This document shows, piece by piece, positions 9,955 to 64,000 of a stretch of 64,000 nt of DNA (positions are counted from its first letter, which is position 1; every line of letters starts with the position of its first letter). Position numbers and translations under genes: made by a program. The DNA is from Bacilli bacterium (GTDB taxonomy: Bacteria; Bacillota_I; Bacilli_A; RFN20; CAG-826). Below the pieces are notes generated by a model. That model was given only the letters and a program-made list of their open reading frames with translations. It did no database searches and was not told where the DNA came from. The stretch is taken from contig JAKSUZ010000002.1 of NCBI GenBank assembly GCA_024408505.1, forward strand, positions 1,337 to 65,336, read 5' to 3'.

Positions 9955-9980
9955 AATAAAAAAAGATGAATTTTCATCTT
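9955..9980 (-). terminator. Rho-independent terminator after the tRNA trio
   Basis: Minus strand: AAGATGAA-AAT-TCATCTT followed by TTTTTTATT, immediately 3' of tRNA-Leu(CAA). Confidence 0.7.
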
Positions 9981-9991
9981 CTTTAATAATT

Positions 9992-10073: not shown

Positions 10074-10079
10074 ATCTAA

Positions 10080-10156: not shown

Positions 10157-10161
10157 GTACT

Positions 10162-10243
10162 TGGTGCAGCTATTGAGATTTGAACTCAAACGGTTTCCCA
10201 CTAGATTCTGACTCTAGCGCGTCTACCATTCCGCCATAGCTGC
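10162..10243 (-). tRNA. tRNA-Leu (anticodon CAG), CCA encoded
   Basis: Reverse complement is GCAGCTATGGCGGAATGGTAGACGCGCTAGAGTCAGAATCTAGTGGGAAACCGTTTGAGTTCAAATCTCAATAGCTGCACCA. Type II tRNA with a long variable arm. Anticodon loop GTCAGAA has an unusual G at position 32. Confidence 0.85.
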
Positions 10244-10302
10244 GTATTTATTATATCTATTAAAAATAAAGGACGCTAACTTGCGCCCTCTACCTAGATA
10301 TC

Positions 10303-10725: not shown

Positions 10726-10733
10726 AAGCGCCT

Positions 10734-49097: not shown

Positions 49098-49107
49098 ATG
49101 AAACATT

Positions 49108-49134
49108 AAGGAGACTAAGGTCTCCTTTTTGTTT
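49108..49134 (+). terminator. Rho-independent terminator
   Basis: AAGGAGAC-TAA-GGTCTCCTT followed by TTTGTTTT. Confidence 0.8.
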
Positions 49135-49148
49135 TATAATATAGATGT

Positions 49149-49562
49149 ATGGATAATTGTATTTTTTGTAAAATCATTAAAGGTGAAATTCCTTCTAGTA
49201 AAATTTACGAGGATGATGATGTTTTAGCGATCCTTGATATTTCACAAGCGACGCATGGTCATACTTTAGTTATTTCTAAAGCACACTACCCAAACTTCTT
49301 ATCTACGCCTAAAGAGATTATGCATAAAGTCATGGATGTCGCACAACGAATCGGACAAGTAGAAATTGCCGTACTTGGCGCTAAGGGCGTAAATATCTTA
49401 ACTAATGTTGGTGAAGAAGCTGGACAAACCATTATGCATTACCATGTTCATGTAGTTCCTCGTTATACGCGTGATGCGGGTTTCCAGATTACTTTAAAAG
49501 AAAACGCGGTCGATAAATCATTACTTCCCGCGCTTGCTAATAAGATTAAAGAAAAACTTTAA
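49149..49562 (+). CDS. HIT-family nucleotide hydrolase/transferase
   Basis: CIFCKI zinc motif and histidine triad HYHVHVVP. Confidence 0.9.
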   Translation: MDNCIFCKIIKGEIPSSKIYEDDDVLAILDISQATHGHTLVISKAHYPNFLSTPKEIMHKVMDVAQRIGQVEIAVLGAKGVNILTNVGEEAGQTIMHYHVHVVPRYTRDAGFQITLKENAVDKSLLPALANKIKEKL

Positions 49563-49904
49563 TTACAATAGTTTAATGCTTTTATAAGCATTGTTTTTGT
49601 CGTTTGGATGCGGTTGAACTGCTATGACAGTTATTTCTTGTCTATTAGGTCCATACATCCAAAAAAGACGTCTAGCAGATGGAGTCTTATTTTCAATATA
49701 TGACTCGAATATCCTTACACCACACTCATGACTTAACACCTCAATTTCATGACTATTTAACCCTGGATGTAGCGGATTGCTACTAAGTAGATATAGTGCT
49801 TTACCAATTTTCTTACGTAACAAAATATCAGCTTTTCCATTTTTCTTGTTTAGGTCTATCCAAAACTTTTCCATTTTTGGAGTCATTAAAATTTTAAAAG
49901 TCAT
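49563..49904 (-). CDS. RelE/ParE-superfamily toxin (probable)
   Basis: 113 aa, 3 nt downstream of an AbrB-type antitoxin gene. The pattern L..NP.HPGL..H....GVRIFESYI....RRLFW.Y.....ITVIAVQPHP is like the RelE/ParE fold. Confidence 0.55.
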   Translation of the reverse strand: MTFKILMTPKMEKFWIDLNKKNGKADILLRKKIGKALYLLSSNPLHPGLNSHEIEVLSHECGVRIFESYIENKTPSARRLFWMYGPNRQEITVIAVQPHPNDKNNAYKSIKLL

Positions 49905-49907
49905 TAA

Positions 49908-50153
49908 TTATTTATATTCTGAAAGATCTATCGGTTTTGAAACTTTACCATCATTGAAGTCTTTTACTGATTGTTTAATCATCTTAAAGGTATTTTCAGA
50001 AATTTCATAAGGATTGATTAAAGCACGTGGCGAAAGAACAATAGTACCATTTTTATGTTCGGTTACAGCATAATAGCGGCAACTAGCACGACGCAAAGTT
50101 AATCTATTTTTTGAATCAACTTTGGCATTATAGCTTCTTAAAACAGCTTCCAT
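49908..50153 (-). CDS. AbrB/MazE/SpoVT-type antitoxin
   Basis: AKVDSKNRLTL is the swapped-hairpin DNA-binding motif. 81 aa. Confidence 0.65.
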   Translation of the reverse strand: MEAVLRSYNAKVDSKNRLTLRRASCRYYAVTEHKNGTIVLSPRALINPYEISENTFKMIKQSVKDFNDGKVSKPIDLSEYK

Positions 50154-50165
50154 AATATCTCCTTT

Positions 50166-50187
50166 GTGGGAAAGTGGGAAATCCCAC
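50166..50187 (-). promoter_or_regulatory. Operator-like repeats upstream of the antitoxin gene
   Basis: Minus strand reads GTGGGA-TT-TCCCAC-TT-TCCCAC, directly before the AAAGGAG RBS. Confidence 0.5.
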
Positions 50188-50226
50188 TGTACCAGTATAT
50201 TAAAATATATTAACTAGAAAAGCAAA

Positions 50227-51156
50227 TTATTTCTTCTTTTTATATAAACGACGCATATCCATGGTCATTAAGCGATTAGTGAATTCACCAGGATTAAGTT
50301 CTTTCGTATTGTTATCATACATCATCATCTTGGCATCTAAGTCATCGATGAAGTTTACTAAGATTGCTTCTTTAGTCGCGCCTAATACGGGTGAACCATA
50401 TTCATATTTACCATGACTAGATAATACGCAGTGCTCAATATGAATAATCTTTTCGTTTTCTTCTAAATGATATTTACTAGCCACATTATTAATCAAATTA
50501 GTGGCAATCACTAAATGACCAAGTAAATGTCCTTCACTAGTATATTCAATTGGTAAGAGCCCACTTAATTCTTTAATCTTGCCTAAATCATGTAAAAATA
50601 CGCTGGCTAAGACGATATCGCTATCAATGTCACTATAATGCTTAATTAAGAAGCTAGCGACGTCTAGCATGCTTACGGTGTGATAAAGTAGTCCACTTGC
50701 GAAGGCATGGTGATTATTACTCGCCGCGGGATAAGTTAAAATCTTTTCTTTATAAGTCTTATATAAATCATCTACAACGGTTTTAATATCTTTATCTTTA
50801 ATATTATTAAGATGCGCTTCTAATTTCTTTTGGAGTGTGTCTTTTGGAATTGGAGAAGTTGGGATGTAATCATCTAACTTAGTCACTTCAACTGAACGAG
50901 CATCTCTAATTCTTAACTCTAATTTATCTTTATACGATGTAACATCAAAAGAGATGTTCACAAATTTACCTGGTTTAAATATTTCTTGATCATCACTAGT
51001 CGCGTCCCATTTCTTCGCACTCATGGTACCACTTTTATCTTGAAGTAAAATGGTTAAAAGCTTTTTGTTATTAACCGTAACACTCATGGTTGCGCTTTTA
51101 ACTAAATATATTTCTTGGTAGGCGTCGCCTTCTTTAAGCGTATTAAGAAAAATCAT
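50227..51156 (-). CDS. yhaM: 3'-5' exoribonuclease YhaM (OB-fold plus HD domain)
   Basis: N-terminal OB-fold and an HD domain (FLHDLGK, GHLxxH). Confidence 0.8.
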   Translation of the reverse strand: MIFLNTLKEGDAYQEIYLVKSATMSVTVNNKKLLTILLQDKSGTMSAKKWDATSDDQEIFKPGKFVNISFDVTSYKDKLELRIRDARSVEVTKLDDYIPTSPIPKDTLQKKLEAHLNNIKDKDIKTVVDDLYKTYKEKILTYPAASNNHHAFASGLLYHTVSMLDVASFLIKHYSDIDSDIVLASVFLHDLGKIKELSGLLPIEYTSEGHLLGHLVIATNLINNVASKYHLEENEKIIHIEHCVLSSHGKYEYGSPVLGATKEAILVNFIDDLDAKMMMYDNNTKELNPGEFTNRLMTMDMRRLYKKKK

Positions 51157-51911
51157 AATTCATCCTCCATCACACCTTTTATTTTACTATAGCTGTAGCC
51201 TTTTCGCCTTAAGGCATTCATAATCTTAGTCTTATCATCATATAATCGTTTAAACTTTGCGTAATCTTTTTTAATCGCGCTTTCATAGTTAACACTAGTT
51301 AGTTTTACTTTAGTTAAAGCCTGATTAATTTCGCTTAACGAATAACCATTACGAAGTAAGTTATTAATAATCTTGTTCTTTTTATCAATAACATCTTTCT
51401 TTGCGTATTGCTGATCTAACTTTTTGACGTAGTCCACTAATGTACCAAATATAATATCTGGATTAATATGGTCTACTACCTTAGCGATATCATTCTCACA
51501 AATCCCTAATTCACGTAATCTTTCTTTAATAAAGTTCTTCCCTTTATGACGACGAATTAAGGTATCAACATAACTAAGCGCAAAACCTAAGTCATCAATT
51601 AGTTGATGCTCTTTTAAATATTGCATAATCATATTAATATTTGTGTCTTTAATTTTCTTCGCGATTAGTTTCTTTTTTAATTTACTTGATGTATATGCAT
51701 ATTTAGAAATTAAATTAAGCGCATAATTTAAATCTTTTGTGTAAGCATCAAAAGCGATGATTTTATCAATATCGGATTTACTTAATAATTTATTAAGATA
51801 TAAATTAAACTCCGTAAATGTATTAGGATTAATTTCTAATTTCTCATCATTAAAATAAAGAACAATCTTCTTTTTTAAAATGTGAATATCGGTAATTCTT
51901 TTCTGGTTCAT
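51153..51911 (-). CDS. recX: Recombination regulator RecX
   Basis: Repeated three-helix RecX modules (YALNLIS...SKLKKKL, GKNFIKERLRELGI, LRNGYSLSEI, LRRKGYSYSKI). Confidence 0.7.
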   Translation of the reverse strand: MNQKRITDIHILKKKIVLYFNDEKLEINPNTFTEFNLYLNKLLSKSDIDKIIAFDAYTKDLNYALNLISKYAYTSSKLKKKLIAKKIKDTNINMIMQYLKEHQLIDDLGFALSYVDTLIRRHKGKNFIKERLRELGICENDIAKVVDHINPDIIFGTLVDYVKKLDQQYAKKDVIDKKNKIINNLLRNGYSLSEINQALTKVKLTSVNYESAIKKDYAKFKRLYDDKTKIMNALRRKGYSYSKIKGVMEDEL

Positions 51912-51913
51912 AA

Positions 51914-53365
51914 TTATTTAATATTAAAATCCCGCCAACCATCATCACGACGATAACGATCTTTCTTTTTAGTTGAACGCGGTAAGATGTCTTCATCAAC
52001 TACAAAAGGTGAATTATCATCTAAATCCGTATCATCTAATTTATATTGGACTTTCTCTAATTCTTTTTCTTTAGTAATCTTCTCTTTAATATTTAAAGCG
52101 TCTTTTAGACGATTTTGTAATTCTTTGCGAGACATTTGAGTGGTTTCGTATAAAGTATCGCTACTTCTTTTTCTTTCTTCATAAGTCTCTAATTGCATAG
52201 TTACAAATGTTCTTCGATCAACATTAAGTGTTTCTTCTTTAGGCGATGCTTTATATAAAACCGTTACAATACCCGCTAATAAAACCGTAATATAATAAGT
52301 AGCAGAACGCCAAATAAGTAAGGCGCTTGTCATATATATTCCAGCTGAACCTCCAATATAGAAGGTTTCAAATAAAGATGAGAAGAATAATTCACTAACA
52401 CCAGCGCCACCTGGGATCGGGAATAAGCCAGTAATCATTTGATGATAGCTAGACATAAAGCAAGCATCGAAGAATGCTCTAACCGTCATACCACCTGTCG
52501 TAGTGCTATCAAAAGCATTAAGCGCCATACCCGCAAACCATGGAATAGAAAATTTACAAATTAGACCAATGAATAGTAACACTAAAATTAAAATGGTTAC
52601 TCTTACGTTACTAAGTAAACGTCTAAGTTCAATCTTGAAGTTCTCAACTTGAATTCTTAGTGATTCTCTAGTTTGATCAGGATTTTTTAAGATGTGAAGT
52701 TTAGCGAGTAATCCAACACCATAATGCATGATGAAGTTATGCATCTTGTGAGAATAGCTCATTAATAGAAGTACACCAATGATTGAAATGTTTAAAACAA
52801 AACCAATAATGGTTAAAGGCGCTAAAGGAAGGGTAAATGACCAAGTACCAATATGACCAGTGATTGACATACTAGTCATTAAATCAGCTTTAAAAATAAC
52901 CGTAACAATATCAAAAATAATTAAAGCGGTGTGATAAAGAATAAAGTACATCACTAGTAAACTAGCAGCATTCGAAATCTGAGTACCTTGCTTCTTTAAG
53001 GTATAAGCCTGCATCACTTGGCCGCCCTTCGCTCCCGGAGTAATTCCGCTATAGAAGGTGCCAATCATACTAACCGCGATGCCTTGGTTAATATGATATC
53101 TACGCGTATATAGGCGCATAAATACGGTAATAACTAGCCCATCAATTAAAAACGAAAAGAGCATGACTCCAACAATTGCGCCTAACCAACGACCATCACA
53201 ATTTGCGAATGCTTTAGCGATATCTTGCGAGTGACCTTTAAGAGTTAAAAATAGTGATAAACTAGTTGCAATTAAAACAAGCCCGATATAAACGGCGTAA
53301 CGACGAATCCCACTCTTTTTCTTATTAGCAGGCGCACTTTTTTTAACTTCGGCTTTGTCCATCAT
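51914..53365 (-). CDS. Flippase-like / lysylphosphatidylglycerol-synthase TM-domain (UPF0104-like) membrane protein
   Basis: About eight TM helices after a basic N-terminus, with a long charged C-terminal tail. The family call rests on topology and pattern only. Confidence 0.45.
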   Translation of the reverse strand: MMDKAEVKKSAPANKKKSGIRRYAVYIGLVLIATSLSLFLTLKGHSQDIAKAFANCDGRWLGAIVGVMLFSFLIDGLVITVFMRLYTRRYHINQGIAVSMIGTFYSGITPGAKGGQVMQAYTLKKQGTQISNAASLLVMYFILYHTALIIFDIVTVIFKADLMTSMSITGHIGTWSFTLPLAPLTIIGFVLNISIIGVLLLMSYSHKMHNFIMHYGVGLLAKLHILKNPDQTRESLRIQVENFKIELRRLLSNVRVTILILVLLFIGLICKFSIPWFAGMALNAFDSTTTGGMTVRAFFDACFMSSYHQMITGLFPIPGGAGVSELFFSSLFETFYIGGSAGIYMTSALLIWRSATYYITVLLAGIVTVLYKASPKEETLNVDRRTFVTMQLETYEERKRSSDTLYETTQMSRKELQNRLKDALNIKEKITKEKELEKVQYKLDDTDLDDNSPFVVDEDILPRSTKKKDRYRRDDGWRDFNIK

Positions 53366-53406
53366 TAAAAGTGTAGCACACCTAATTTCACTTTTGGGAC
53401 ACCACT

Positions 53407-54261
53407 TTATTTACTTACAGTAATTTTTACAATTTCAGGGTTACAATTGACCCTTAGAGGCATCATCGCCGAATATCCAAGGCCGCGAGACACTACTAAA
53501 TCAGTGTTATTTCGATGGTATGTTCCACCCATATAATCGCTTTCTTCTAATGCAACAGTAGAAGGTATCCAATTACCAATCTTAAATTGACCACCATGCG
53601 TGTGACCACTAATCACTAAATCAAAATTATAATTATCCGCAATCATTTTAAAGTTATCTGGGCGATGATCAAGTAAGATATTAAAATCGTCTTTATTAAA
53701 TGTTTTAGTCATCTCATCTAAAGATGCTTTAGTGGCTTCTTCTCTTTTTTTAAATGAAGCACCGCCACCGACTTTAAAACGAGCGTCTTCTAATCCATAT
53801 ATATGGAAGTGTTCATTAATATCAATATGGTCATCTTTAATATAAGTGACATTCTTTTCGTGCATTAATTGTTGTAGGGCTTCCCATTCTGGTGCGTACT
53901 GTTCATGGTTACCAGTAACAAAATAAGAACTCCCACTAATGCTATTACCGGCATCAAAGATTTCTTTAATATCATCAACCGATTTAGAATGGGTATCAAC
54001 TAAATCACCAGTATAGAAAATATAATCAACACGTTCTTGTTTTTTTAAAATATCAATCATATTTCCATTACTAAAATTAAGTGAACGGTGATGGTAATCA
54101 CTAATCACTAGACACGAGAATGAATCAACCTTATTAGACTTTAGTTCATAACTAACAATATCAAGCTGATCGCTACTAACACCGCATATAATTAAACCAA
54201 TAATGCAAAAGGAAAACATCACATAAGCAATGATTCTTAAAACTCGTTTAAAGATATCCAT
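53407..54261 (-). CDS. Membrane-anchored metallophosphoesterase (YkuE-like)
   Basis: N-terminal TM helix. SDYHH, TGDLVD, GNHE and GHTHGGQ motifs. Confidence 0.8.
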   Translation of the reverse strand: MDIFKRVLRIIAYVMFSFCIIGLIICGVSSDQLDIVSYELKSNKVDSFSCLVISDYHHRSLNFSNGNMIDILKKQERVDYIFYTGDLVDTHSKSVDDIKEIFDAGNSISGSSYFVTGNHEQYAPEWEALQQLMHEKNVTYIKDDHIDINEHFHIYGLEDARFKVGGGASFKKREEATKASLDEMTKTFNKDDFNILLDHRPDNFKMIADNYNFDLVISGHTHGGQFKIGNWIPSTVALEESDYMGGTYHRNNTDLVVSRGLGYSAMMPLRVNCNPEIVKITVSK

Positions 54262-54283
54262 CTTAAAAATATTATAGTCTCAA

Positions 54284-56095
54284 TTAATTACGTTTATTCG
54301 CAAATTGTGAATTATAAAGATCAGCGTATAAACCTTTCTTCTTTAATAATTGATTGTGGTTACCGCATTCAAGGACATCCCCGTCTTTCATAACGATAAT
54401 CATATCCGCGTTCTTAATGGTAGATAATCTATGCGCAATTACGAATGAAGTTCTACCTTTCATTAATTTATCCATCGCGTCTTGAATTAATAATTCAGTA
54501 CGAGTATCCACGCTACTAGTCGCTTCGTCTAAGATTAACATTGGAGCGTTCTGGACCATTGCTCTAGCAATCGTGAGTAATTGTTTTTGACCACTAGATA
54601 GACCGCTATCTTCTTTAAGTAACTTATCATAGCCACCTGCTTGTTTAATAAATTCATCGCAGTGCGTAGCTTTACAGGCTTCATATACTTCTTCATCGGT
54701 AGCGTCTCTACGAGAGAATTTAAGGTTTTCCATGAAAGTACCTTCAAATAACCAAGTATCTTGTAACACCATTCCGAATAGACTACGAACGTAGCTTCTA
54801 TTCATCTTAGTGGTATCAACACCCTCGATAGTAATTTTGCCACCATTAACTTCATAGAATCTCATTAAGAGGTTAACCATGGTAGTCTTACCTGCTCCGG
54901 TTGGACCAACAATGGCGATTTTTTGACCTTTCTTGGCTACTTGTGAGAAGTCATGAATAATGACTCGATCTTTAGTATAACCAAATCTAACATGATCAAA
55001 GGCCACGTTGCCTTCAACCTTTTGAATAGTAGTAGTCTTACTAGATTCATCTGGTTCATTAGTCTCTTCTAACATAGAGAAGACACGAGATGCCGCGGCT
55101 AAAGCTTGTTGGAAGGTCGCTAGTAATTGAGCAATGTTACTCATCGGCGCAATTAATTGTTCGCCATAAGAAACCGCTGCCACGACCATGGTAATAACTT
55201 GATGGGCTTCATCAGAGGTGCCACCATGTTCAGAGACTACAAGACTTGCGATATAACCACCGACTAAACATATAACGGCGAAGATTAAGTTACCAAAGAA
55301 GGTTGTAATTGGGATCATTAATCCTGCATAAGTTTCAGCTTTGAAATTGGTTTTCTCTAACTTGAAGTTAGTATCAGAGAATTTATCTTTAAAGCGTTTA
55401 CTTGCTCCGAAGGATTTAATAATTGCATGAGCGGTGTAACTTTCTTCCGCCAAGGAAGAGGTTTCGCTTGTTAAAGCTTGACGAGCCTCGAAGCTCTTTT
55501 GAGAACGTTTACCAACAATACCTAAGATTACTAGGATAATTGGTAGCATTACGATAATAATTAAGCCTAGCATCCAAGAGAAGGTGAAGAGAATAATAAT
55601 TGAACCAAATAAAGTAATCGTCGCAGCGATTAAGCTTGATAAGGTTAAGTTAAGCGTTTGACCAATGGTATCAACATCATTCGTGACATAACTTAAGACA
55701 TCACCAATATTACGAGTATCAAAATAATTAAGTGGAAGATGGTTAATCTTCTCAGCCATGCGTTTTCTTAATTCTTTACTAGTTTCAGTTGTGACACCAG
55801 TAATGATATAGATTTGAGTGTAATCAAATAAGAAACCACCACCAAAGAAGGCAAAGGCAATACCTGCATACATGTAAATACCAGGGAAGTCCCAGTTTTT
55901 CGTTGATTGACCAGCGACGATTCTTTGTGAGATTTGTTGAATCATTAATGGCGCACCTAATCTAAGGATTGCACCGATTGCGCCTAAGAATAAGGCGAAA
56001 ATAATTAATTTCTTATGAGGGGCTAAGCATTTAAGTAATTTCTTAAAGGAGCTTGGCTTTCTCGCTTCGTAGCGATTTTTAATAATGTTTTCCAT
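54284..56095 (-). CDS. ABC exporter, fused permease/ATPase (second pair, subunit B)
   Basis: Walker A GPTGAGKTT, signature LSSGQKQL, Walker B ILDEATS. Confidence 0.9.
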   Translation of the reverse strand: MENIIKNRYEARKPSSFKKLLKCLAPHKKLIIFALFLGAIGAILRLGAPLMIQQISQRIVAGQSTKNWDFPGIYMYAGIAFAFFGGGFLFDYTQIYIITGVTTETSKELRKRMAEKINHLPLNYFDTRNIGDVLSYVTNDVDTIGQTLNLTLSSLIAATITLFGSIIILFTFSWMLGLIIIVMLPIILVILGIVGKRSQKSFEARQALTSETSSLAEESYTAHAIIKSFGASKRFKDKFSDTNFKLEKTNFKAETYAGLMIPITTFFGNLIFAVICLVGGYIASLVVSEHGGTSDEAHQVITMVVAAVSYGEQLIAPMSNIAQLLATFQQALAAASRVFSMLEETNEPDESSKTTTIQKVEGNVAFDHVRFGYTKDRVIIHDFSQVAKKGQKIAIVGPTGAGKTTMVNLLMRFYEVNGGKITIEGVDTTKMNRSYVRSLFGMVLQDTWLFEGTFMENLKFSRRDATDEEVYEACKATHCDEFIKQAGGYDKLLKEDSGLSSGQKQLLTIARAMVQNAPMLILDEATSSVDTRTELLIQDAMDKLMKGRTSFVIAHRLSTIKNADMIIVMKDGDVLECGNHNQLLKKKGLYADLYNSQFANKRN

Positions 56096-57840
56096 TATGC
56101 TAACTCCTCCTTACTTAATTGGCTTAAGGCAATTTCTTTATAAACCTTACAGTTCTTAAGAAGTTCCTTATGCGTACCTTTGCCGACCATGTTGCCATTA
56201 TCTAGAACGATGATTTGATCAGCGTCCATAATGGTACCAACACGTTGAGCGACGATAATATTAGTGACTCCTTTACATCTTTTCTTAATCTCGCCTCTAA
56301 GAACTTTATCAGTCTTATAGTCAAGAGCAGAGAAGGAATCATCAAAGATAAATATTTCTGGTTTAGTGATAATTGCACGAGCGATACTTAAGCGTTGTCT
56401 TTGACCACCGCTTACGTTCTTACCACCTTGAGATATTTCATAGTTAATGCCATTAGTGAGTTTACTAACAAATTCATTTGATTGAGAAATATCTAATGCT
56501 TCTTTTAATTCTTCATCGGTTGCATTAGGAACGCCTAAGCAAACGTTATTTCTAAGCGTATCGTGGAAGAGGTATGGTTTTTGTGGGACGTAGCCAAACT
56601 TCTTATATAAATCATCTAATTTATATTTCTTAACATCTAGACCATCCACTAAAACTTGACCAACACTCGTGTCATAAAATCTTTGAATTAAATTTAAGAG
56701 TGTGGTTTTACCACTACCAGTTGCGCCGATAAAAGCTAAGGTTTCGCCTTTATTAACTTTAAAGCTTACTTTCTTTAAACTAGGTGCGCCTCCACCAGGA
56801 TAAGTGAAGCTAACATCTTTAAATTCAACCGTACCAACTTCGTTATATCTTTCGGTTTCTTTGTTATCTTTAATTTGAATCTCGGTTTCAATAACTTCAT
56901 TAATACGCTTCGCGCATATAGTTGAACGAGGAATCATAACTAAGATAATAACCATTAACACAAAGCCGGTTAGTAATAGACCTGCGAATTGAATAATAAC
57001 GGTCATCTTTGGATATTCTAGTTGCCCATCCTTAATTAAATGTGAACTAACTAGAGTAATCGCAATCATCATAAGACCAATGGTTAATTGAATACCTGGC
57101 ATTAAGAAACCTAATGCTCTATTTGCGAATTTATCGTCTTTAGTTAATGATTCATTAACATTAGTGAACTTCTCTTCTTGGTAAGATTCTGCGTTATAGG
57201 CTCTAACAACTCTAAGACCTTCAAGATTCTCTTTAGTGATTAAGTTAACCTTATCAATTCGTTTTTGCATGCTAGAGAAGCGGGGAAGCGCCAATCTAAC
57301 TACGGCAAAGATAATTAAGGCTAATAATAAGACTGCTCCTGCAATTACTAAGAATAATTGATAACGACAAGTATCAGGATCGGTTAATAAGAAGACAAAT
57401 GCTCCAACCGCAAGTAATGGTCCATAAAGCATAAAGCGGAATAATAAGACATAAGTGTTACTTACGTTTGTAATATCATTCGTGGTTCTAGTAATTAAGC
57501 TAGATACACTATACTTATTCATTTCGTTTTCACTAAACTGACCAATCTTGGTATATAGTTCATAGCGAACTCTTGCCATCATCTTCGCGGTTACTTTACT
57601 CGCTAAGGTACAAGTCGCTACTCCCATAACTCCACTAGCTAATGCTACTAATATCATTTGGATTGCGGTTAGCACCACTTCTTGCATGTTAACTCCAGAT
57701 GAACCATCTTGAATCATCTTAATGATTTCTCCCATTAAACTTGGGAGTAAAAAGTCGAAAACGACTTGGGCACAAGTTAATACGATGATTAAAATAACTA
57801 ACCACCAATAACTCTTTAGCCTTTTTAAAAATTTAAACAT
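56095..57840 (-). CDS. ABC exporter, fused permease/ATPase (second pair, subunit A)
   Basis: Walker A GATGSGKTT, signature VSGGQRQRL, Walker B IFDDSFSALD. Confidence 0.9.
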   Translation of the reverse strand: MFKFLKRLKSYWWLVILIIVLTCAQVVFDFLLPSLMGEIIKMIQDGSSGVNMQEVVLTAIQMILVALASGVMGVATCTLASKVTAKMMARVRYELYTKIGQFSENEMNKYSVSSLITRTTNDITNVSNTYVLLFRFMLYGPLLAVGAFVFLLTDPDTCRYQLFLVIAGAVLLLALIIFAVVRLALPRFSSMQKRIDKVNLITKENLEGLRVVRAYNAESYQEEKFTNVNESLTKDDKFANRALGFLMPGIQLTIGLMMIAITLVSSHLIKDGQLEYPKMTVIIQFAGLLLTGFVLMVIILVMIPRSTICAKRINEVIETEIQIKDNKETERYNEVGTVEFKDVSFTYPGGGAPSLKKVSFKVNKGETLAFIGATGSGKTTLLNLIQRFYDTSVGQVLVDGLDVKKYKLDDLYKKFGYVPQKPYLFHDTLRNNVCLGVPNATDEELKEALDISQSNEFVSKLTNGINYEISQGGKNVSGGQRQRLSIARAIITKPEIFIFDDSFSALDYKTDKVLRGEIKKRCKGVTNIIVAQRVGTIMDADQIIVLDNGNMVGKGTHKELLKNCKVYKEIALSQLSKEELA

Positions 57841-57900
57841 AACATAAATAGAGTAAAGAAAAGAGAGTAATAAGTCAATGTAATAATGAATTATTACAAT

Positions 57901-59205
57901 TTAATAGTTATCTTTTTTAATCATATAGATGTAAGTGGCGATTGTAGCTAGAAAATCAAGTAACATTCCACCGCCAAACATTAAGGCAATTCCATCAAGA
58001 GTCGGAATAAAGATTCCTGCTTTCCATAAAGAAAACATAATTACATAATAAGTTCCGTTAGTGACAATAGTTTGAATTAGCATTAAATAAGTCTTACCAC
58101 GCCCATAAATAATTCCATCTAATAAATAGTTATAGATAAACGCAATATAGAAACCGGTTTGAATTAAAACAATGTGGAAAATTGTTTCATAAGCATCAGA
58201 ATTTAAAACATATTGAATAAATGGTTTCCATGCAGGAATTGTAATTAGCCAAAGGATTGTAAAGAGCGTTGATATAACTATATAACCAAGAAATTTATCT
58301 TTTACATTTTTTCTGTTCTCAGCAGTTTCTTTTTTAATTACATCATAAAGCGCGGTGGCTGGTAATAATAACCAAGTCCAAATAAAATTGTTTGCCACCC
58401 AGTATGCGCCTTGTTCACTAATTGTGTTTACTAGACGAAGTACCATTAACATATAAGCAAGATTGCGGATAAATGATTCTAAACCTGATAATAAACCTAT
58501 CTTCCCGTATTCTTTTAGCCATTTAAAATCTAATTTATCTTTAGTAAAAACATTAATGCCTTCTTTCTTAAGCATAATGAAAGATGAAACCACCGAAATT
58601 ATTGACACAGCAATATTTGAAACCGCAATCCCATCCACTCCCATATTCGCTGAGCAAGGAAGCTTAGAAATTAAGAATGTATCTAACAATATAGATAAAA
58701 CTGTTTGAACCACTAATAAGATGTACATATACTTATCCTTATTAATAGTTACCAGTAAAACCGTAATAAATTTAGAAAGAATAGAAATAGTGGATGCAAC
58801 TGTTTCTAAACGTATATAATTAACAGTCTCAGTTAAAGTGCTTGGATCGCTTGCCATAAATTTACATAACGGCTCAGCGCAACTAATGATGATAATTGAT
58901 AATAGTAAATAAGCACCGCCACTTATTAATAATCCTGTTCTAGTTTTATTTGCTAATTCTTTTTTATTGTTAAACGATTTGCCTAACAAATAGAAAAGAG
59001 GCAAGATAAACGCTTCTTCAATTACTTCGTAAATGATGTTAACCCATGCGAGTTGAGAAGCAATGTCAACTCCGCTGCTACTTGGCAAATCACCTAAAAA
59101 GAATATTCTTAAAGTTTTATATAAAGCAGGTATTAATAGGGTTGTGGCTAGAACTAACCACAACCTCCAATTAAAGGTCTTAATGGAATTAATTATTTTC
59201 TTCAT
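57901..59205 (-). CDS. MATE/MOP-superfamily 12-TM membrane protein
   Basis: About 12 TM helices in two halves with MATE-like loops (GVDGIAVSN). Its ATG overlaps the stop of the upstream AAA protease gene (ATGA). Confidence 0.6.
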   Translation of the reverse strand: MKKIINSIKTFNWRLWLVLATTLLIPALYKTLRIFFLGDLPSSSGVDIASQLAWVNIIYEVIEEAFILPLFYLLGKSFNNKKELANKTRTGLLISGGAYLLLSIIIISCAEPLCKFMASDPSTLTETVNYIRLETVASTISILSKFITVLLVTINKDKYMYILLVVQTVLSILLDTFLISKLPCSANMGVDGIAVSNIAVSIISVVSSFIMLKKEGINVFTKDKLDFKWLKEYGKIGLLSGLESFIRNLAYMLMVLRLVNTISEQGAYWVANNFIWTWLLLPATALYDVIKKETAENRKNVKDKFLGYIVISTLFTILWLITIPAWKPFIQYVLNSDAYETIFHIVLIQTGFYIAFIYNYLLDGIIYGRGKTYLMLIQTIVTNGTYYVIMFSLWKAGIFIPTLDGIALMFGGGMLLDFLATIATYIYMIKKDNY

Positions 59206-60530
59206 AATTGTTCACCTTTATTATACTTCTTAATTAACTCTTCCATTTCAGTCTGATTTAATTTAACTTTTGACTTTAATTCTTTGAAAATATATTCCGC
59301 TAATTTTTTATTTTTTAGTAATATTTTTTTGTCTTCTTCGTATAAAGTTTGTAACTTATCAGCCATAAACTTTTCGATTTTAGCTGATTTAATTTCTGAA
59401 TCAGCATTGTTTCTTGAGGAGTTCATCATAAATTCGATTGAATTTATTTTTTCGCTTATAAGATCAAATCCAAACGCACCTATATTCATAACGCTAATAA
59501 TTAAGGCCTTGGCGTTACTCAAATCAGTCATACCGCCTAAACCAAGATCTTTAATATAAGTTTCTTCGGCTGCCATACCAGCAAGTTCTATCATAACTTT
59601 ATGATCCAATGTATTCTTAGTAACCTCAACACGTCTAGTTGGAAAATCATCAGTTCGCATAAATCCCTTGACATTTCCATATCTTTCAACTGATAATGCG
59701 CCAATTGTTTTGTTAAGAACATAGTTTAGAATGAAATGGCCTATTTCGTGATAGCAAGTTATGTCTTCTGGGCCATTCAAATCTACCTTACGAATTTCTT
59801 GAAAGAACACCACTGGAATAATTCTTTCAAAATCAGCGAGCGTAATTTTTGTTTTCTTTTTTGAAGCACAATCAATAATAGTTTCGTTAACTAGTGTTTT
59901 AATATCGGCGCCAGAGAAACCAGATGATTTATTAGCTAACACTTTTGGATCTATTGATTTAGTAATATCATTTTTAACCAAATATAGTTTGAAAATTGCT
60001 TCGCGAGATTTCAAATCGGGCATTGGCATTGTAATTCTTTTATCCATTCTTCCGCTTCTAATTAACGCAGGCGGTAATTTACCACGAGCGTTTGTGGTAG
60101 CGATGACCATAATCCCACTAGTTGAGGAAATACCATCAATTTCCGTTAAAAGAATTTTTAATGTCTTTCTTGAATAGTCAGAATAGAATTCTTCTGTCAT
60201 TACTAATTCATCAAGTTCATCAATAAAAATAATCGATGGTGCGTTTTCACGGGCTTTTTTAAATACATCTTTTATTGATTTAATAGTAGCAGTTTCAGTT
60301 TCACACTCATTACTTTCAAATTCATAAAACGGAACATTTGATTCATTGGCAATTGCTTTAGCAAGCATTGTTTTGCCAACGCCTGGTCTTCCAGAGAGAA
60401 TTAGTCCTTTCGGAATATAGGCACCAATTTTTTCATATTTTTTATGATTTTTGAGTACTTCAATAATTTTTTCGGCTTCTTGTTTCTCTTCATCGTAGCC
60501 AGCGATGTCTTTTAAATAAATTTTTTCCAT
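59202..60530 (-). CDS. Soluble FtsH-like AAA+ ATPase fused to an M41-type metalloprotease domain, with no TM anchor
   Basis: Walker A GRPGVGKT, Walker B IIFIDELD, second region of homology ATTNARGKLPPALIRSGRMD, then the zinc motif HEIGH. No hydrophobic N-terminal segments. Confidence 0.75.
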   Translation of the reverse strand: MEKIYLKDIAGYDEEKQEAEKIIEVLKNHKKYEKIGAYIPKGLILSGRPGVGKTMLAKAIANESNVPFYEFESNECETETATIKSIKDVFKKARENAPSIIFIDELDELVMTEEFYSDYSRKTLKILLTEIDGISSTSGIMVIATTNARGKLPPALIRSGRMDKRITMPMPDLKSREAIFKLYLVKNDITKSIDPKVLANKSSGFSGADIKTLVNETIIDCASKKKTKITLADFERIIPVVFFQEIRKVDLNGPEDITCYHEIGHFILNYVLNKTIGALSVERYGNVKGFMRTDDFPTRRVEVTKNTLDHKVMIELAGMAAEETYIKDLGLGGMTDLSNAKALIISVMNIGAFGFDLISEKINSIEFMMNSSRNNADSEIKSAKIEKFMADKLQTLYEEDKKILLKNKKLAEYIFKELKSKVKLNQTEMEELIKKYNKGEQL

Positions 60531-60583
60531 AAGTTTTCACCTCTGAAAATAATATTATTTATAAATAAAGATTAATGTTGTTT

Positions 60584-60602
60584 TGTGATAAATGTCATCA
60601 CA
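60584..60602. promoter_or_regulatory. Operator site 3, TGTGA-N9-TCACA, upstream of the FtsH-like gene
   Basis: TGTGATAAATGTCATCACA. Read on the minus strand, the site and its 3' flank closely match the site at 62630 and its flank (TGTGATGACAT.T.TCACAAAACAACATT). Confidence 0.6.
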
Positions 60603-60605
60603 CGC

Positions 60606-62234
60606 CTAGTCAAATTGTGAGATTTTTTCGTTTTTAAGATTGACTACCATAGCATCCCACATCGCCTTTTTCTCGCTAACAAACATATCGTACATATGCA
60701 AAGCGTCATCTGGAAAATTTACTTGCCCGGGTTTGTTTTTAAAATATTCTTTGCCGCCGTGAAAATGTATTTGCAAAAATAGAAACATGTAGTAACCGAT
60801 TTCTTTTGGGGCGTTATCCCATACTCTAGTGCTAGCATTGAATGCATAGCCACTACTATGCCCAATGTCTAAACTAATTTGATAAAGATTGTATATGCTA
60901 ACGCCAAAAGCAGAATTGTTAAGAGCTACACTAATATAGTCCTTAACAACCTGGCGATAGTATCCGTGCATTTCTTCGCTAGGATAAATAAAATATAAAG
61001 AATCTTGTTTTACGCCTTTTATAAAATCTTCTAATTTAAGGTTTGGAAATTTTTCTTTATAGTATTCGTTATATAATTTGGATAAGGGTTCATCGACTTT
61101 TGAGAATAAGGATGAATTAGCGTGAGAATGCCGAGAATAGAAATCAAATAACTGATAAGTGGTTGAAAGACGATAAGCTCTTTTCATGAAAGCATATTCC
61201 TTTTGAGTTTGGACTCCTGATACTTTCATAAACACGCCTAAGTTTTCAATAAAAATTTTAAATTTAATTACTGCTTGCTCATGAAAGCCAAATCCTCTAC
61301 AAATTTCGATATCCCGAATTAAAGCGATTAACGAACCGATTTGGCGATAATAAAAATAATCTACCGAATTATCCAAATAATGAGTTGTAGCATAATTCAA
61401 TCGCCCTAACACTTTTGCTTCCATTAACGCTCCACGAACATTTTGGTCAATTAATTTATTTTGTTGATTTTCATCAAACGAATTCATCTCGTTATCTGCT
61501 AGATATCCTCTTTCGTTCAAATACTCTAAACCGTATAGATATATCATTGTTATAACATCATGTCTATGTTTGGATATAGGTTCCAATATGTTTTCTTCAA
61601 ACGCAGCAGGATGTAATAAAATACTCAGAAATTGATAACAATCACCAAACGACGAGCCTAAATAATGATTGATCATCTTTAACGGGGAGACTGAGTGGAA
61701 AGGATATTTTTCGCTATTTATGTCGTAATTATGTATTTCTTTTTGTAGGAAAAATAAAGAATCCCGAGAAGCTGATTTTAAAAATTTAGTCTTACAGCCA
61801 AAAAACTTAGACCATTTTTGATAAAAACCCTCTAAATCCTTTTGACGATTTACTAATATGTCATTCGGCGGAAAATTTTCCATCACCCATTTAAATACAA
61901 CCGATTCATTCGAATATTCAATAGGCAAATATAATTCACGATACAAATCATAATTATGCTTTTTTAAATCTCCACACTCATGACATTTTAGAATTGCTAT
62001 CGCTTCCAACACATTTCTGGCATTTAATTCAATTCCTGGTGAGCCTATGCCACATATATGATCATTTAAAAAGATTGCCATCATATTGGTAACTAAATCT
62101 AGTTTTATACCATATTGAAAATAATCCTCGTTTGAAACGCTTGTATCATTAAATCGACTACGACAATCCTTATCGAGTTTAGACAGCGATTTATAGATAA
62201 TGTTTTTATTTTTTAAAGCTTCCTGAACATTCAT
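60606..62234 (-). CDS. 542-aa cytoplasmic protein of unknown function
   Basis: Long uninterrupted ORF that looks largely helical, with no TM segment or motif I recognise. A TATAAT lies 8 nt before the ATG and there is no SD sequence, so the mRNA may be leaderless. Confidence 0.6.
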   Translation of the reverse strand: MNVQEALKNKNIIYKSLSKLDKDCRSRFNDTSVSNEDYFQYGIKLDLVTNMMAIFLNDHICGIGSPGIELNARNVLEAIAILKCHECGDLKKHNYDLYRELYLPIEYSNESVVFKWVMENFPPNDILVNRQKDLEGFYQKWSKFFGCKTKFLKSASRDSLFFLQKEIHNYDINSEKYPFHSVSPLKMINHYLGSSFGDCYQFLSILLHPAAFEENILEPISKHRHDVITMIYLYGLEYLNERGYLADNEMNSFDENQQNKLIDQNVRGALMEAKVLGRLNYATTHYLDNSVDYFYYRQIGSLIALIRDIEICRGFGFHEQAVIKFKIFIENLGVFMKVSGVQTQKEYAFMKRAYRLSTTYQLFDFYSRHSHANSSLFSKVDEPLSKLYNEYYKEKFPNLKLEDFIKGVKQDSLYFIYPSEEMHGYYRQVVKDYISVALNNSAFGVSIYNLYQISLDIGHSSGYAFNASTRVWDNAPKEIGYYMFLFLQIHFHGGKEYFKNKPGQVNFPDDALHMYDMFVSEKKAMWDAMVVNLKNEKISQFD

Positions 62235-62274
62235 ACATTTATATTATATATAATCAATTCAATTTTAGTGATTT

Positions 62275-62293
62275 TGTGATGCACTACATCACA
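62275..62293. promoter_or_regulatory. Operator site 1, TGTGA-N9-TCACA, in the divergent promoter region
   Basis: TGTGATGCACTACATCACA (7-bp arms TGTGATG/CATCACA), between the 542-aa gene and the HTH gene. Confidence 0.6.
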
Positions 62294-62397
62294 TTCAATG
62301 TTTTTAGTTGTGTTTTTCTTCTTAATTGATATAATGAGCATGAAACTAGGCAACCGATGCCTCTTGTAGAGCGATCTACGCGGAGGAGGTAATCGAT

Positions 62398-62613
62398 ATG
62401 AATAGTTTCTCTTCCTATGACGCGATGATTGCGTTGTATGAAAAAATTCGGGACCGGATCAAAGATCGGCCTGATGTTACACAAGCGCTTCTTGCAAAAG
62501 AAGTAGGTGTCACACGTGAACACCTTAATAGGATGCTTAGCAATAAATATCCTATGAAAGTGGAAACATTGATCCACCTTATGATCCTTCTCGATATGAA
62601 TCGCCTGCTCTAA
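62398..62613 (+). CDS. XRE-family helix-turn-helix transcriptional regulator
   Basis: GGAGGAGG RBS. TQALLAKEVGVTREHLNRMLSNK is a typical HTH_3 helix-turn-helix. 71 aa. The gene is visibly more G+C-rich than its flanks. Confidence 0.75.
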   Translation: MNSFSSYDAMIALYEKIRDRIKDRPDVTQALLAKEVGVTREHLNRMLSNKYPMKVETLIHLMILLDMNRLL

Positions 62614-62630
62614 GAGCAGGCTTTTCTTTT
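62603..62630 (+). terminator. Rho-independent terminator of the HTH gene
   Basis: GCCTGCTC-TAA-GAGCAGGC followed by TTTTCTTTT. The stop codon forms the loop. Confidence 0.8.
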
Positions 62631-62648
62631 GTGATGACATATGTCACA
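62630..62648. promoter_or_regulatory. Operator site 2, TGTGA-N9-TCACA, upstream of the 329-aa gene
   Basis: TGTGATGACATATGTCACA, containing the perfect 12-nt palindrome TGACATATGTCA. Confidence 0.6.
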
Positions 62649-62687
62649 AAACAACATTTAACATATAAAACCGATATTATAAAATTA

Positions 62688-62742
62688 GCTGTAACGTTCT
62701 TACAGCAAAATCCTCCATAAGGGCAAGGCACAGACCTTGCCC
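62688..62742 (+). promoter_or_regulatory. Structured G+C-rich 5' leader with two hairpins
   Basis: GCTGTAA-CGTTC-TTACAGC (62688-62706) and GGGCAAGG-CACAGA-CCTTGCCC (62721-62742) flank AATCCTCCAT, which is complementary to SD-type sequences. The element lies 40 nt before the AAAGGAG RBS of the 62785 gene. Confidence 0.45.
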
Positions 62743-62784
62743 CTAACCTATATATAGAGGTATAAATATACAAAGGAGAATATT

Positions 62785-63774
62785 ATGAACGAAAAAGAAA
62801 ATATGCAATTCAAAAAATTTGTTGAAGAATTGCACAAATTGGCCATTGCTAATAAAGACAAGGAAGTGCCAGACGTAGTAAGTAATAGAGATGCTCTCAT
62901 TGCCTATTACATCGTTTCACATATTGATATTATTGACGAAGGCGATGCTTTATTGTTTTTGATTGCCAACAACTTAATTAACACTTATATCAAGCAACCC
63001 GAGGCATTAACTTGCTTTAAATACGTATTTAAAAATTCATTATTTATCATTCTAAATAATTTAAAGAAGCGTGATTTTCCGAATATAAAAGTGAATTATA
63101 TTGCCAAAGAATTAAATAATAATAATTTAATCCTGTTTACTATCTATGATATGCAATTTTCCTATCACTCTATCCCAAAACGTATGGAGTGGTGCATTAC
63201 TGATAAATATAAGAGCGACACTGTCTTCGCAGGCGTAAGAAATAAAAACTGTATTAATGAGTTATTTGCTCGAGTTCTAAAAAATAAAATCAAATACAAC
63301 AACATTACTATTAGAAAAAAACCTTTATTAAAAAATGCCTATGATTTAGCGGATGATTATTTAAGTGGAAAGCTAAAGAACAAGGATATTAAATACATTT
63401 GTCGTCTTCCTGATTATTGCTACACAGAACATCAAGATCAACTGGGCATTAAGGTTAATCAAATTAATCAATCAAGCCGAAAAAGCGGAATCAGCTATAT
63501 CTTACAAAGTAAATGGGGTGAATTTTATCGATCTGCTTTGGACAAACTTGACTTAGAGGAATCGAAAGGTAAATTATGTACAATAAGCGCCACGCTAAAG
63601 CAAAACGAAGCGGATTTAAATGCGGCAATTGATATTATAAAAAAGAATAATTATGTTCCAGTCGATAAAATAACTCCGTCAAGTTTTATTATAGTTAAAG
63701 ATGAAGAAGATAAGGATCGATTAATATCAAAACTCAAACATCCATATAATGGTGAATTTATTAAGCTTAAATAA
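62785..63774 (+). CDS. 329-aa cytoplasmic protein of unknown function
   Basis: AAAGGAG RBS. Long ORF with no TM segment or motif I recognise. Confidence 0.6.
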   Translation: MNEKENMQFKKFVEELHKLAIANKDKEVPDVVSNRDALIAYYIVSHIDIIDEGDALLFLIANNLINTYIKQPEALTCFKYVFKNSLFIILNNLKKRDFPNIKVNYIAKELNNNNLILFTIYDMQFSYHSIPKRMEWCITDKYKSDTVFAGVRNKNCINELFARVLKNKIKYNNITIRKKPLLKNAYDLADDYLSGKLKNKDIKYICRLPDYCYTEHQDQLGIKVNQINQSSRKSGISYILQSKWGEFYRSALDKLDLEESKGKLCTISATLKQNEADLNAAIDIIKKNNYVPVDKITPSSFIIVKDEEDKDRLISKLKHPYNGEFIKLK

Positions 63775-63807
63775 AAGAAATAACAATTTCTATATATTTT
63801 CTATATA

Positions 63808-63981
63808 TTAGATTAATTCAAGAATTTCGTAGCAAGTAAAGCCAAACGCTGAACGAGCGAGTCTTTGATCTGCAACGCTTTCGGCATCGGCTTTTGATTT
63901 GCCTTCTAAGACTTCACGAAAACAGACCCTCTTGGATTTGAGGCATTCTTGGTCAAAGTAATATCTGATTTCGTACTGCAT
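63808..63981 (-). CDS. Possible 57-aa protein, convergent with the 329-aa gene
   Basis: ATG at 63981 to TAA at 63808. Translation is MQYEIRYYFDQECLKSKRVCFREVLEGKSKADAESVADQRLARSAFGFTCYEILELI. No clear RBS. Below the ORF-track cutoff. Confidence 0.3.
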   Translation of the reverse strand: MQYEIRYYFDQECLKSKRVCFREVLEGKSKADAESVADQRLARSAFGFTCYEILELI

Positions 63982-64000
63982 AGTGTATATATAATAAAGC

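Follow-up and report, generated by a model that had tools for sequence, protein, structure and literature searches.

A common operator at three promoters of an accessory island encoding an FtsH-like protease and two orphan proteins in a Bacilli genome

The window analysed here is a stretch of 64,000 nucleotides from a metagenome-assembled genome (MAG) labelled 'Bacilli bacterium' (assembly GCA_024408505.1, contig JAKSUZ010000002.1, positions 1,337 to 65,336 of the forward strand), and coordinates refer to this window unless a locus is named. Near its right end lies a cassette of five genes that encode a small helix-turn-helix (HTH) regulator, a soluble FtsH-like protease, a MATE-like membrane protein and two orphan proteins of 542 and 329 amino acids. 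A first-pass annotation of the sequence had proposed an island starting at 59202 in which one small repressor gates three transcription units through copies of TGTGA-N9-TCACA. That start cuts off the MATE-like gene, and the true span is 57842–63823. Below we describe the island, the operator and promoters that its genes have in common, its relatives in other genomes and the functions that it may have.

Genes and borders of the island

The genes of the island and its right border are as follows.

57842..63823, no strand: the whole accessory island (5,982 bp), with the ABC exporter gene (which ends at 57840) on one side and the 57-aa gene on the other, delimited by blastn against MJ213
57901..59205, minus strand: MATE-like membrane protein, 434 aa (NCBIfam NF045539, transmembrane-like stretches)
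59202..60530, minus strand: FtsH-like protein, 442 aa, with no transmembrane segment, AAA+ followed by M41 with HEIGH (Pfam AAA, AAA_lid_3 and Peptidase_M41)
60606..62234, minus strand: all-alpha protein of 542 aa, a rare family (exhaustive HMMER search, AF2 model)
62398..62613, plus strand: HTH regulator of 71 aa, XRE-like (weak Pfam matches, PHROGs transcription regulators)
62785..63774, plus strand: 329-aa protein of the B family, an N-terminal domain and a C-terminal domain of ~90 aa that is common to DEDDh-exonuclease fusions
63808-63981, minus strand: 57-aa protein at the right border, G+C 40.8%, with no family match

The borders were placed by comparison with a related MAG, MJ213. Its contig L036 is collinear with window positions 48193–57841 at 75–83% identity and with 63824–64000 at 91.5% identity (blastn), and just 281 bp separate the two collinear blocks in L036, where the window has 57842–63823. 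This segment is one insertion/deletion polymorphism and a single accessory unit. Because the empty site in MJ213 spans only 281 bp, the MATE-like, FtsH-like, 542-aa, HTH and 329-aa genes make up one insertion. The genes that flank it are housekeeping genes (RF-1, HIT, RecX, a lysyl-phosphatidylglycerol synthase-like gene and ABC exporters), and the 57-aa protein is kept at ≥90% identity in at least 12 sequences of related MAGs. Neither an integrase nor flanking repeats of the island were seen in the window, and no Rfam family was found between 57000 and 64000. The first-pass annotation had likened the layout to a defence island lacking an integrase, and this description agrees with what we find: an accessory insertion/deletion with no visible integrase, whose relatives lie among defence genes. 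In the NCBI annotation the MATE-like protein is named a multidrug transporter, the FtsH-like protein an AAA family ATPase and the regulator a helix-turn-helix domain-containing protein, while the 542-aa and 329-aa proteins are both hypothetical.

Operator sites, promoters and the HTH gene

Exact matches to TGTGA-N9-TCACA occur three times in the 64 kb (60584–60602, 62275–62293 and 62630–62648), all of them inside the island. The count expected from 100 dinucleotide-preserving shuffles is 0.03, and none of the 100 reached three; the sites named in the first-pass annotation, though numbered inconsistently between list and text, are exact and above background in the window. Permitting one mismatch adds a single, unrelated site. 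The TTTT said to precede each site is present at all three as TTT plus the T of TGTGA. The strongest inverted repeat in 57700–64000 pairs 60574–60602 with 62630–62658 (29 nt, 93% complementary): the operator and its flank AAACAACATT are present twice, once toward the FtsH-like gene and once toward the 329-aa gene, and TCACAAAACAACAT has exactly two copies in the window, each within one of these 29-nt modules. The proposal that operator and flank were copied together in front of these two genes is borne out. The sites and the elements around them are listed here.

60552..60557, minus strand: TAATAT, predicted as −10 box for the FtsH-like/MATE operon, 27 nt beyond the operator (fixed geometry)
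60574..60602, minus strand: operator module, TGTGATGACATTTATCACA plus flank AAACAACATT, in front of the FtsH-like gene (motif scan, inverted repeat)
62243..62248, minus strand: TATAAT, predicted as −10 box for the 542-aa gene, 27 nt beyond the operator, with the same layout in L005
62275..62293, no strand: operator of the divergent region between the 542-aa and HTH genes, TGTGATGCACTACATCACA (exact motif match)
62327..62335, plus strand: extended −10 box TGATATAAT of the HTH gene, predicted from the sequence and identical in L005
62361..62385, plus strand: hairpin in the HTH leader, predicted with RNAalifold, the outer helix of which pairs CUCU with the Shine-Dalgarno GGAG
62603..62629, plus strand: intrinsic terminator of the HTH gene, GCCTGCTC-TAA-GAGCAGGC followed by a T-run, the stop codon forming the loop
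62630..62658, plus strand: operator module, TGTGATGACATATGTCACA plus flank AAACAACATT, in front of the 329-aa gene (motif scan, inverted repeat)
62675..62680, plus strand: TATTAT, predicted as −10 box for the 329-aa gene, 27 nt beyond the operator
62688..62778, plus strand: structured 5′ leader of the 329-aa gene, in which an upstream CCUC pairs with the ribosome-binding site GGAG

To see how the motif is distributed we took a census of TGTGA-Nx-TCACA, with x from 0 to 20, over 434 kb made up of the window and the loci fetched with its proteins (numbered with the prefix L). Nineteen of the 24 occurrences lie directly upstream of cassette genes. All 12 with a spacing of nine are in cassettes; those with a spacing of 10 (two) or 12 (five) take the equivalent position, only in loci with other HTH subtypes, and the remaining spacings together give five occurrences, elsewhere. 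In the inspected loci the HTH proteins adjacent to N9 operators have a common recognition helix, (T/S)RE(H/Y)L(N/T)R(M/I)L, at 41–69% identity, while the spacers differ between sites. At L005, where the HTH is 69% identical to that of the window, the orthologue of the divergent-region site is TGTGATAACGTTTGTCACA, with the half-sites retained and the spacer different. The N9 operator together with the flank AAACAACAT also stands before the FtsH-like genes of L008, L019 and L015, and in L015 it occurs twice; the HTH proteins adjoining it are 41–48% identical to the window protein (the values for homologues adjoining the same operator being 69%, 48% and 41%), and that of L019 was matched by phmmer only. 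Locus L010, with an unrelated HTH, has the palindrome TGAACC-N3-GGTTCA at about three positions, as judged by eye. Across these loci the operator travels with one HTH subfamily, other subfamilies having other spacings or repeats at the same position, and this co-variation is the main argument for the adjacent HTH as the binder. The module was not found in viral contigs. A reading of the AAACAACAT flank as an element for an alternative sigma factor (sigma-D or ECF) was dropped, as such a reading does not extend to all modules, and a LexA or Cheo box in L010 was rejected for its wrong spacing.

The position of the operator relative to the promoter is also fixed. In seven of eight effector-facing promoters a −10-like hexamer begins 27–28 nt past the operator, which ends 26–27 bp upstream of it; the probability of this geometry is ~2e-7, or ~4e-6 when only five lineages are counted as independent. 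The three island promoters with this geometry are those of the FtsH-like/MATE operon, the 542-aa gene and the 329-aa gene, though for the last a consensus scan offers the alternative TTAACA-16-TAAAAT at 62658–62685. This would place the operator at about −57 to −39, next to the −35 position, which the conserved flank would occupy. In the N12-type promoters a good −35 hexamer (CTGACA) lies 4 nt after the operator, the core being CTGACA-17-TATATT. The divergent site has the fixed geometry toward the 542-aa gene and not toward the HTH promoter, the extended −10 box of which is ~10 bp farther away. The location given earlier for this site, between the 542-aa and HTH genes, is right; by its geometry the site is mainly the operator of the 542-aa gene and is not clearly autoregulatory.

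The HTH protein itself is only weakly matched by Pfam families (HTH_3 at 20.7 bits with a gathering threshold of 23, HTH_Crp_2 likewise below its cut-off), as are its homologues in L005, L008 and L010 by HTH_3; it does match PHROGs families of transcription regulators. Three features of its gene that had been noted before were all recovered. It is richer in G+C than its surroundings (40.7%, where the window averages 33.7%, a value that only 5.5% of 216-nt windows reach), it has its own ribosome-binding site, GGAGGAGG, and the loop of its terminator is the TAA stop codon. The T-run of the terminator abuts the next operator, a junction that is alike in L008 and L015. For the leader, RNAalifold gives 10 pairs, two of them compensatory, and single-sequence folds of the leaders from the window, L005, L008 and L015 have the same shape, with inner stems that differ and yet remain paired. 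The leader of the 329-aa gene folds with a minimum free energy of −30.4 kcal/mol (z = −4.84), and 0 of 200 shuffles fold as well. Hairpins are therefore predicted to sequester the Shine-Dalgarno sequence in both leaders. An open reading frame (ORF) of 118 aa at 62284–62640 on the minus strand is antisense to the entire HTH gene and was called in its place by one pipeline (L001); having neither homologues nor family matches, it is probably spurious.

A common operator at a fixed position in three promoters means that one regulator could set all the effector units together, and we hold with high confidence that the 71-aa HTH would be this regulator, binding the operator and co-regulating the three promoters. 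The sign of its action is another matter. Since the operator abuts the core promoter without overlapping it, repression and activation are both possible, and that the HTH represses the three promoters, as the first-pass annotation took for granted, is a reading in which our confidence is moderate; the association of regulator with operator, their co-variation and the fixed geometry support that part of the earlier proposal which concerns common control, while its repression part is put in doubt by an operator placement that fits activation as well. Two points weigh against repression by this HTH: the operator lies upstream of the −35 position and not over it, where activators (the C proteins of restriction-modification systems, for example) bind as typically as repressors do, and the −35 element of promoters of the N9 type, AACATx, is poor. 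For the model as a whole, the operator scan of the source genome covers 64 kb of a MAG. The HTH could accordingly be an activator, or a dual activator and repressor, in the manner of C proteins, and we regard this as a possible, though distinctly less favoured, account. Bound beside the −35 position, between about −57 and −39 and without overlap, it would recruit RNA polymerase to promoters with weak −35 elements, where AAACAACAT replaces the −35 consensus, and would give a delayed, dose-dependent switch-on of the effectors after the island enters a cell. In favour of this account, too, are the separate extended −10 box of the HTH gene and the hairpin in its leader, which would limit its translation. 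The good core promoter downstream of the operator in the N12-type relatives should however need no activator, the HTH has no match to the PADLOC Control_protein model, and small XRE proteins encoded next to toxic or defence genes generally act as repressors. The resemblance to C proteins lies in the size (an HTH of ~70–100 aa), in palindromic boxes next to the −35 element and in the coordination of potentially toxic genes on a mobile unit, whereas the island has no restriction or modification genes and has three separate target promoters in place of one C/R promoter. Far less probable still is a reading in which a global host regulator, of the CRP/FNR or Rex type, recognises the sites and the neighbouring HTH is unrelated to them. 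TGTGA and TCACA are indeed half-sites of CRP and Rex boxes and the HTH has its weak HTH_Crp_2 match, but CRP and Rex boxes are spaced by N6 and the island sites by N9, there is no further site in the 64 kb and no site outside cassettes in the fetched loci, and the operator differs in spacing and in sequence from one adjacent HTH subtype to another.

Recurrence of the cassette and its protein families

Architectures were read from the neighbourhoods fetched in searches with the window proteins. The cassette genes recur, in shuffled arrangements, in about 15 other loci of gut and rumen Bacilli, so the HTH, FtsH-like, 542-aa and 329-aa (B) genes, whose co-occurrence the first-pass annotation had made a check on its proposal, do co-occur elsewhere, in the combinations that follow.

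L008, L019: 542-family – HTH – FtsH-like – MATE
L035: HTH – 542-family – MATE – exonuclease-B
L016, L020–L022: 236-aa protein – HTH – FtsH-like – MATE – exonuclease-B; L012 the same with no MATE gene
L013: HTH – FtsH-like – MATE – exonuclease-B
L015: HTH – 328-aa protein – FtsH-like – B
L005: 542-family divergent from HTH, then B

The HTH gene precedes the FtsH-like gene in most loci. Among FtsH-like genes of at least 57% identity, the MATE-like gene follows in eight loci (including L008, L013, L016 and L019–L022) and a B-family gene accompanies them in nine. The FtsH-like proteins of the recurring loci are 57–60% identical to that of the window in protein alignment, and the MATE-like proteins match at E values of 1e-67 to 1e-187. 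The FtsH-like gene is frameshifted in L023 and truncated in L024, with 69–78% identity over the best tblastn segment. A single FtsH-like query against genome contigs had found nothing; it was a two-sequence alignment query that recovered the loci. In the account that we favour, if only somewhat, the island is a single horizontally acquired accessory unit and one version of a modular cassette of uncultured gut and rumen Bacilli. In four genomes an operon for a FecCD-type ABC transporter adjoins the cassette or a 542-family gene.

L006, 11637–14429: FecCD-type operon
L012, 5397–8211: FecCD-type operon
L014, 11522–14365: FecCD-type operon
L023, 1716–4584: FecCD-type operon

Because it flanks the cassette or a 542-family gene in all four, this operon suggests a common integration hotspot with variable content. 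Genes recognised by PADLOC as defence genes are found close to several of the relatives: MzaB and MzaC directly beside the truncated FtsH-like gene in L024, GmrSD/SspE-like and AriA/OLD-like proteins near the locus in L033, a type IIG methyltransferase in L006, and Schlafen/pAgo-associated and RmrA-like proteins in L008. The frameshifted and truncated FtsH-like copies, and a ToxN gene a few kb from the empty site in MJ213, add to this defence-island context. Locus L014 also holds, at 9507–9875 between the exonuclease-B and FtsH-like genes, an ADP-ribosylglycohydrolase fragment of 122 aa that matches only the C-terminal part of the Pfam model and is probably a decayed accessory gene.

The FtsH-like protein has the FtsH domain order, AAA+ then M41. 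It had been described as a soluble AAA+/M41 protease; the absence of transmembrane segments and the retention of the motifs uphold this, but a simple soluble FtsH it is not, as both of its pore loops are altered. It begins at the AAA domain with no transmembrane-like segment, and so lacks the N-terminal transmembrane and extracytoplasmic domain by which FtsH is membrane-anchored, and it scores 285.6 bits against the FtsH equivalog model (NCBIfam TIGR01241), below the cut-off of 600. In an alignment with five cassette homologues and the canonical FtsH of a tilS-hprT-ftsH locus (L017), to which it is 29% identical, it retains as FtsH does Walker A (GRPGVGKT), Walker B (FIDELDE), sensor-1, the arginine fingers (RSGRMD), the HEXXH motif as HEIGH and the third zinc ligand, Asp336. 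Where canonical pore-loop 1 reads EMFVGVGAS (MFVG), the window protein has the acidic ECETETATI with a two-residue deletion and no aromatic residue; pore-loop 1 is altered in all six aligned cassette homologues, and a HMMER alignment to VAT (KYYG/KWVG) gives the same result. The region of pore-loop 2 is 4 residues shorter. The FtsH-like protein also differs from canonical FtsH in its genomic setting, an accessory island where its gene is coupled to that of the MATE-like protein. Searches of plasmid and phage collections (tblastn) gave only generic FtsH matches at 30–34% identity and no close relatives. The MATE-like protein passes the curated cut-off of the MATE efflux family NF045539 (521 bits, cut-off 350), and a Kyte-Doolittle scan shows several hydrophobic, transmembrane-like stretches (10 overlapping windows flagged). 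Its start codon overlaps the FtsH-like stop in an ATGA, by which the two genes would be translationally coupled. In L015 the cassette (HTH, 328-aa protein, FtsH-like and B; 7831–11317) directly follows hprT, the position that canonical ftsH takes in the tilS-hprT-ftsH of L017 (6907–10669); this adjacency may reflect a hotspot for insertion, or else be a vestige of where the FtsH paralogue came from.

The 542-aa protein belongs to a family so sparse that word-seeded homologue searches, with the single sequence or with a 45-sequence profile, recovered only the protein itself, and an exhaustive HMMER search of 1.84 billion representatives gave 63 relatives. An AlphaFold2 (AF2) model built with 45 relatives is confident and all-alpha (pLDDT 88.4, pTM 0.92). 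The structure and profile searches that the first-pass annotation had called for returned no relative: against the PDB and BFVD the fold gave noise only (best E 0.2–0.3, TM-score ~0.1), a profile of the family matched nothing among PDB sequences, and no Pfam, PHROGs, PADLOC or NCBIfam family was found, the PADLOC scan having covered 45 family members. The near-invariant residues (Y14, G67, R73, E77, Y200, H208, P209, E330, Y392, F404, D456, H459, G462 and Y463) hint at a functional site. The gene has no Shine-Dalgarno sequence, and TATAAT lies 8 nt before its ATG. In the 542-family genes of the window, L005, L008 and L035 the Shine-Dalgarno sequence is likewise missing and a −10-like hexamer (TATAAT, in L008 TATTAT) lies 6–8 nt from the ATG, which suggests that these mRNAs, that of the 542-aa protein included, are probably leaderless. 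Two of the 45 family members and the 236-aa protein ('c10') of other loci match DUF5677 weakly, but hhalign did not relate c10 to that family, and the proposed homology was dropped.

The 329-aa protein has two relatives in a set of 5.8 billion proteins and matches no Pfam (RNase_T exonuclease included), PHROGs, PADLOC or NCBIfam family. Members of the B family have a C-terminal domain of ~90 aa in common and a variable N-terminal domain. In most relatives the latter belongs to the DEDDh exonucleases, as it does in the B proteins of L013, L014 and L016 (RNase_T or DEDDh_C), and a phmmer search matches the L035 protein to these exonuclease-type relatives. The B proteins of the window, L005, L003 and L015 have a different N-terminal domain with no family, and the 329-aa protein has only the C-terminal domain in common with the DEDDh-type members. 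The earlier statement that neither the 542-aa nor the 329-aa protein has a role stands in so far as no housekeeping family emerged for either, but the 329-aa protein is not featureless, its family including DEDDh exonucleases. The structure model of the 329-aa protein is poor (pLDDT 46, three sequences in the alignment), and a BRCT-like reading of the C-terminal domain received no support from Pfam or PDB searches. Around the 329-family protein of MJ213 (L003, 5247–13126) there is a different cluster, with a transmembrane-anchored AAA protein that lacks M41, a 589-aa HTH fusion, orphans of 282 aa and 416 aa, a REase-ARP/PDDEXK protein and DUF4238.

Possible functions and neighbouring variable sites

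HTH repressors that are cleaved by a partner metallopeptidase control immune operons (10.1101/2022.04.27.489752; PMC12828697), and the account favoured here draws a comparable arrangement for the cassette. A dimer of the 71-aa HTH would bind TGTGA-N9-TCACA and hold a potentially harmful cassette at a low level until a trigger inactivated it; by analogy with CapH/CapP and DdrO/IrrE, the zinc protease of the cassette would be a candidate inactivator. Once released, the cassette would act as an anti-mobile-element or abortive defence, with the B protein as an effector directed at nucleic acids, the FtsH-like/MATE pair as an ATP-dependent switch or protease associated with the membrane, and a sensor or adaptor role for the 542-aa protein. 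That the cassette is a defence or abortive system of some kind we judge to be evenly balanced. The fuller proposal, a multi-component immune system of gut Bacilli in which a soluble FtsH paralogue with altered pore loops serves not as an unfoldase but as an ATP-driven signalling protease that destroys the HTH or activates a partner on infection and so unleashes the domain-swappable B effector and the 542-aa protein, is put forward only tentatively and is a good deal less probable.

CapH/CapP, DdrO/IrrE and ImmR/ImmA each combine an XRE-family repressor with a partner metallopeptidase in immune or damage-response operons (10.1101/2022.04.27.489752; PMC12828697). The likeness to CapH/CapP is in a small HTH encoded beside the genes it apparently controls, a palindromic operator in their promoters, a zinc metallopeptidase in the same locus and a defence-island context. 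It differs in that the only peptidase of the cassette is AAA+/M41 (FtsH-type) and not COG2856/M78, that the HTH has no capH match (no PADLOC match at E ≤ 0.1), and that the operator precedes the protease gene as well; any cleavage of the HTH is hypothetical here. The Iet system (IetA AAA+ ATPase and IetS protease) likewise joins a classic-clade AAA+ ATPase to a protease in a defence context, and the PADLOC IetA models match the AAA domain of the FtsH-like protein (E = 2.8e-26), as does TRIP13, also at the level of the AAA domain only. Its protease is however a separate serine protease while that of the cassette is a fused M41 metalloprotease; the cassette has no IetS homologue, and its MATE-like, B and 542-aa partners are unrelated to Iet. 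Literature searches on FtsH-like or M41 proteins in defence, on MATE with exonuclease in defence islands and on DUF5677 found no description of the cassette, which appears to be undescribed: its regulatory logic is of a known kind, and its component set has no PADLOC v2 model.

Several observations count against a role in defence. No cassette protein matches the PADLOC-DB v2 models except at the generic level of the AAA domain; the adjacency of defence genes is guilt by association, descriptive rather than a controlled statistic; searches of phages, plasmids and viral contigs did not turn up the cassette, in which no recombinase is visible; and a MATE-type transporter is not usual in defence and, together with an exonuclease, could fit tolerance of drugs or DNA damage. 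The main functional rival is accordingly an inducible module for tolerance of xenobiotics or DNA damage, which we consider unlikely but not negligible. The MATE-like protein would export a toxic compound, an exonuclease-type B would repair or trim damaged DNA, the FtsH-like protein would remove damaged proteins and the HTH would be a drug- or damage-responsive repressor. This would agree with the MATE efflux cut-off passed by the MATE-like protein and its NCBI name, with the DEDDh domains of B-family relatives, with the ABC exporters that adjoin the island and with the membership of MATE transporters such as DinF in damage regulons. It is harder to reconcile with an HTH of 71 aa that lacks a ligand-binding domain, with pore-loop changes that speak against a general quality-control protease, or with the patchy distribution, the pseudogenes and the recognised defence genes repeatedly adjacent; and in the window, L005, L003 and L015 the exonuclease domain is swapped for an unrelated one, such swapping being typical of conflict systems. 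Less probable again, and in our view improbable, is an addiction module of the toxin-antitoxin kind that stabilises the island and does not serve defence; the HTH would be both repressor and unstable antitoxin, subject to degradation by the FtsH-like protein, and an orphan would be the toxin. The cassette does encode a small putative repressor alongside a protease, tight control of translation is predicted, and the HTH has weak matches to HigA-type and 'plasmid antitoxin with HTH' models; but the HigA-type match (TIGR02607) reaches 18.3 bits where the cut-off is 47.7, no toxin family turned up, a set of five genes that is shuffled in modules does not resemble a typical toxin-antitoxin pair, and there is no single partner with which the HTH is co-transcribed in a constant order.

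If the cassette is immune or abortive, it would add parts that are not yet catalogued: an FtsH-type AAA+ metalloprotease with altered pore loops, a MATE-like partner and an all-alpha fold with no match in the PDB or BFVD. Should it serve tolerance, gut commensals would have in it a mobile unit for efflux and repair. A natural FtsH variant that keeps both catalytic sites while its pore loops are altered raises the question of what role is left to an AAA+ protease when substrates are not threaded in the canonical way, and the island is a compact example of regulation in which one regulator and one operator at a fixed geometry in three promoters would be combined with hairpins that sequester Shine-Dalgarno sequences and a probably leaderless gene.

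Other features were seen to the left of the island. Two adjacent ORFs of 690 and 656 aa at 45062–49097 on the plus strand, between the RF-1 and HIT genes, match no Pfam family at E ≤ 1e-5, and the 656-aa ORF is conserved in MJ213 (blastn block 48193–49564). About 3.5 kb from the island there is a second variable spot, where MJ213 carries an inserted gene for a ToxN toxin (type III toxin-antitoxin/abortive infection; L036, 13961–14368) between ABC exporter and metallophosphatase genes; the equivalent in the window is a few bases at 54276–54282.

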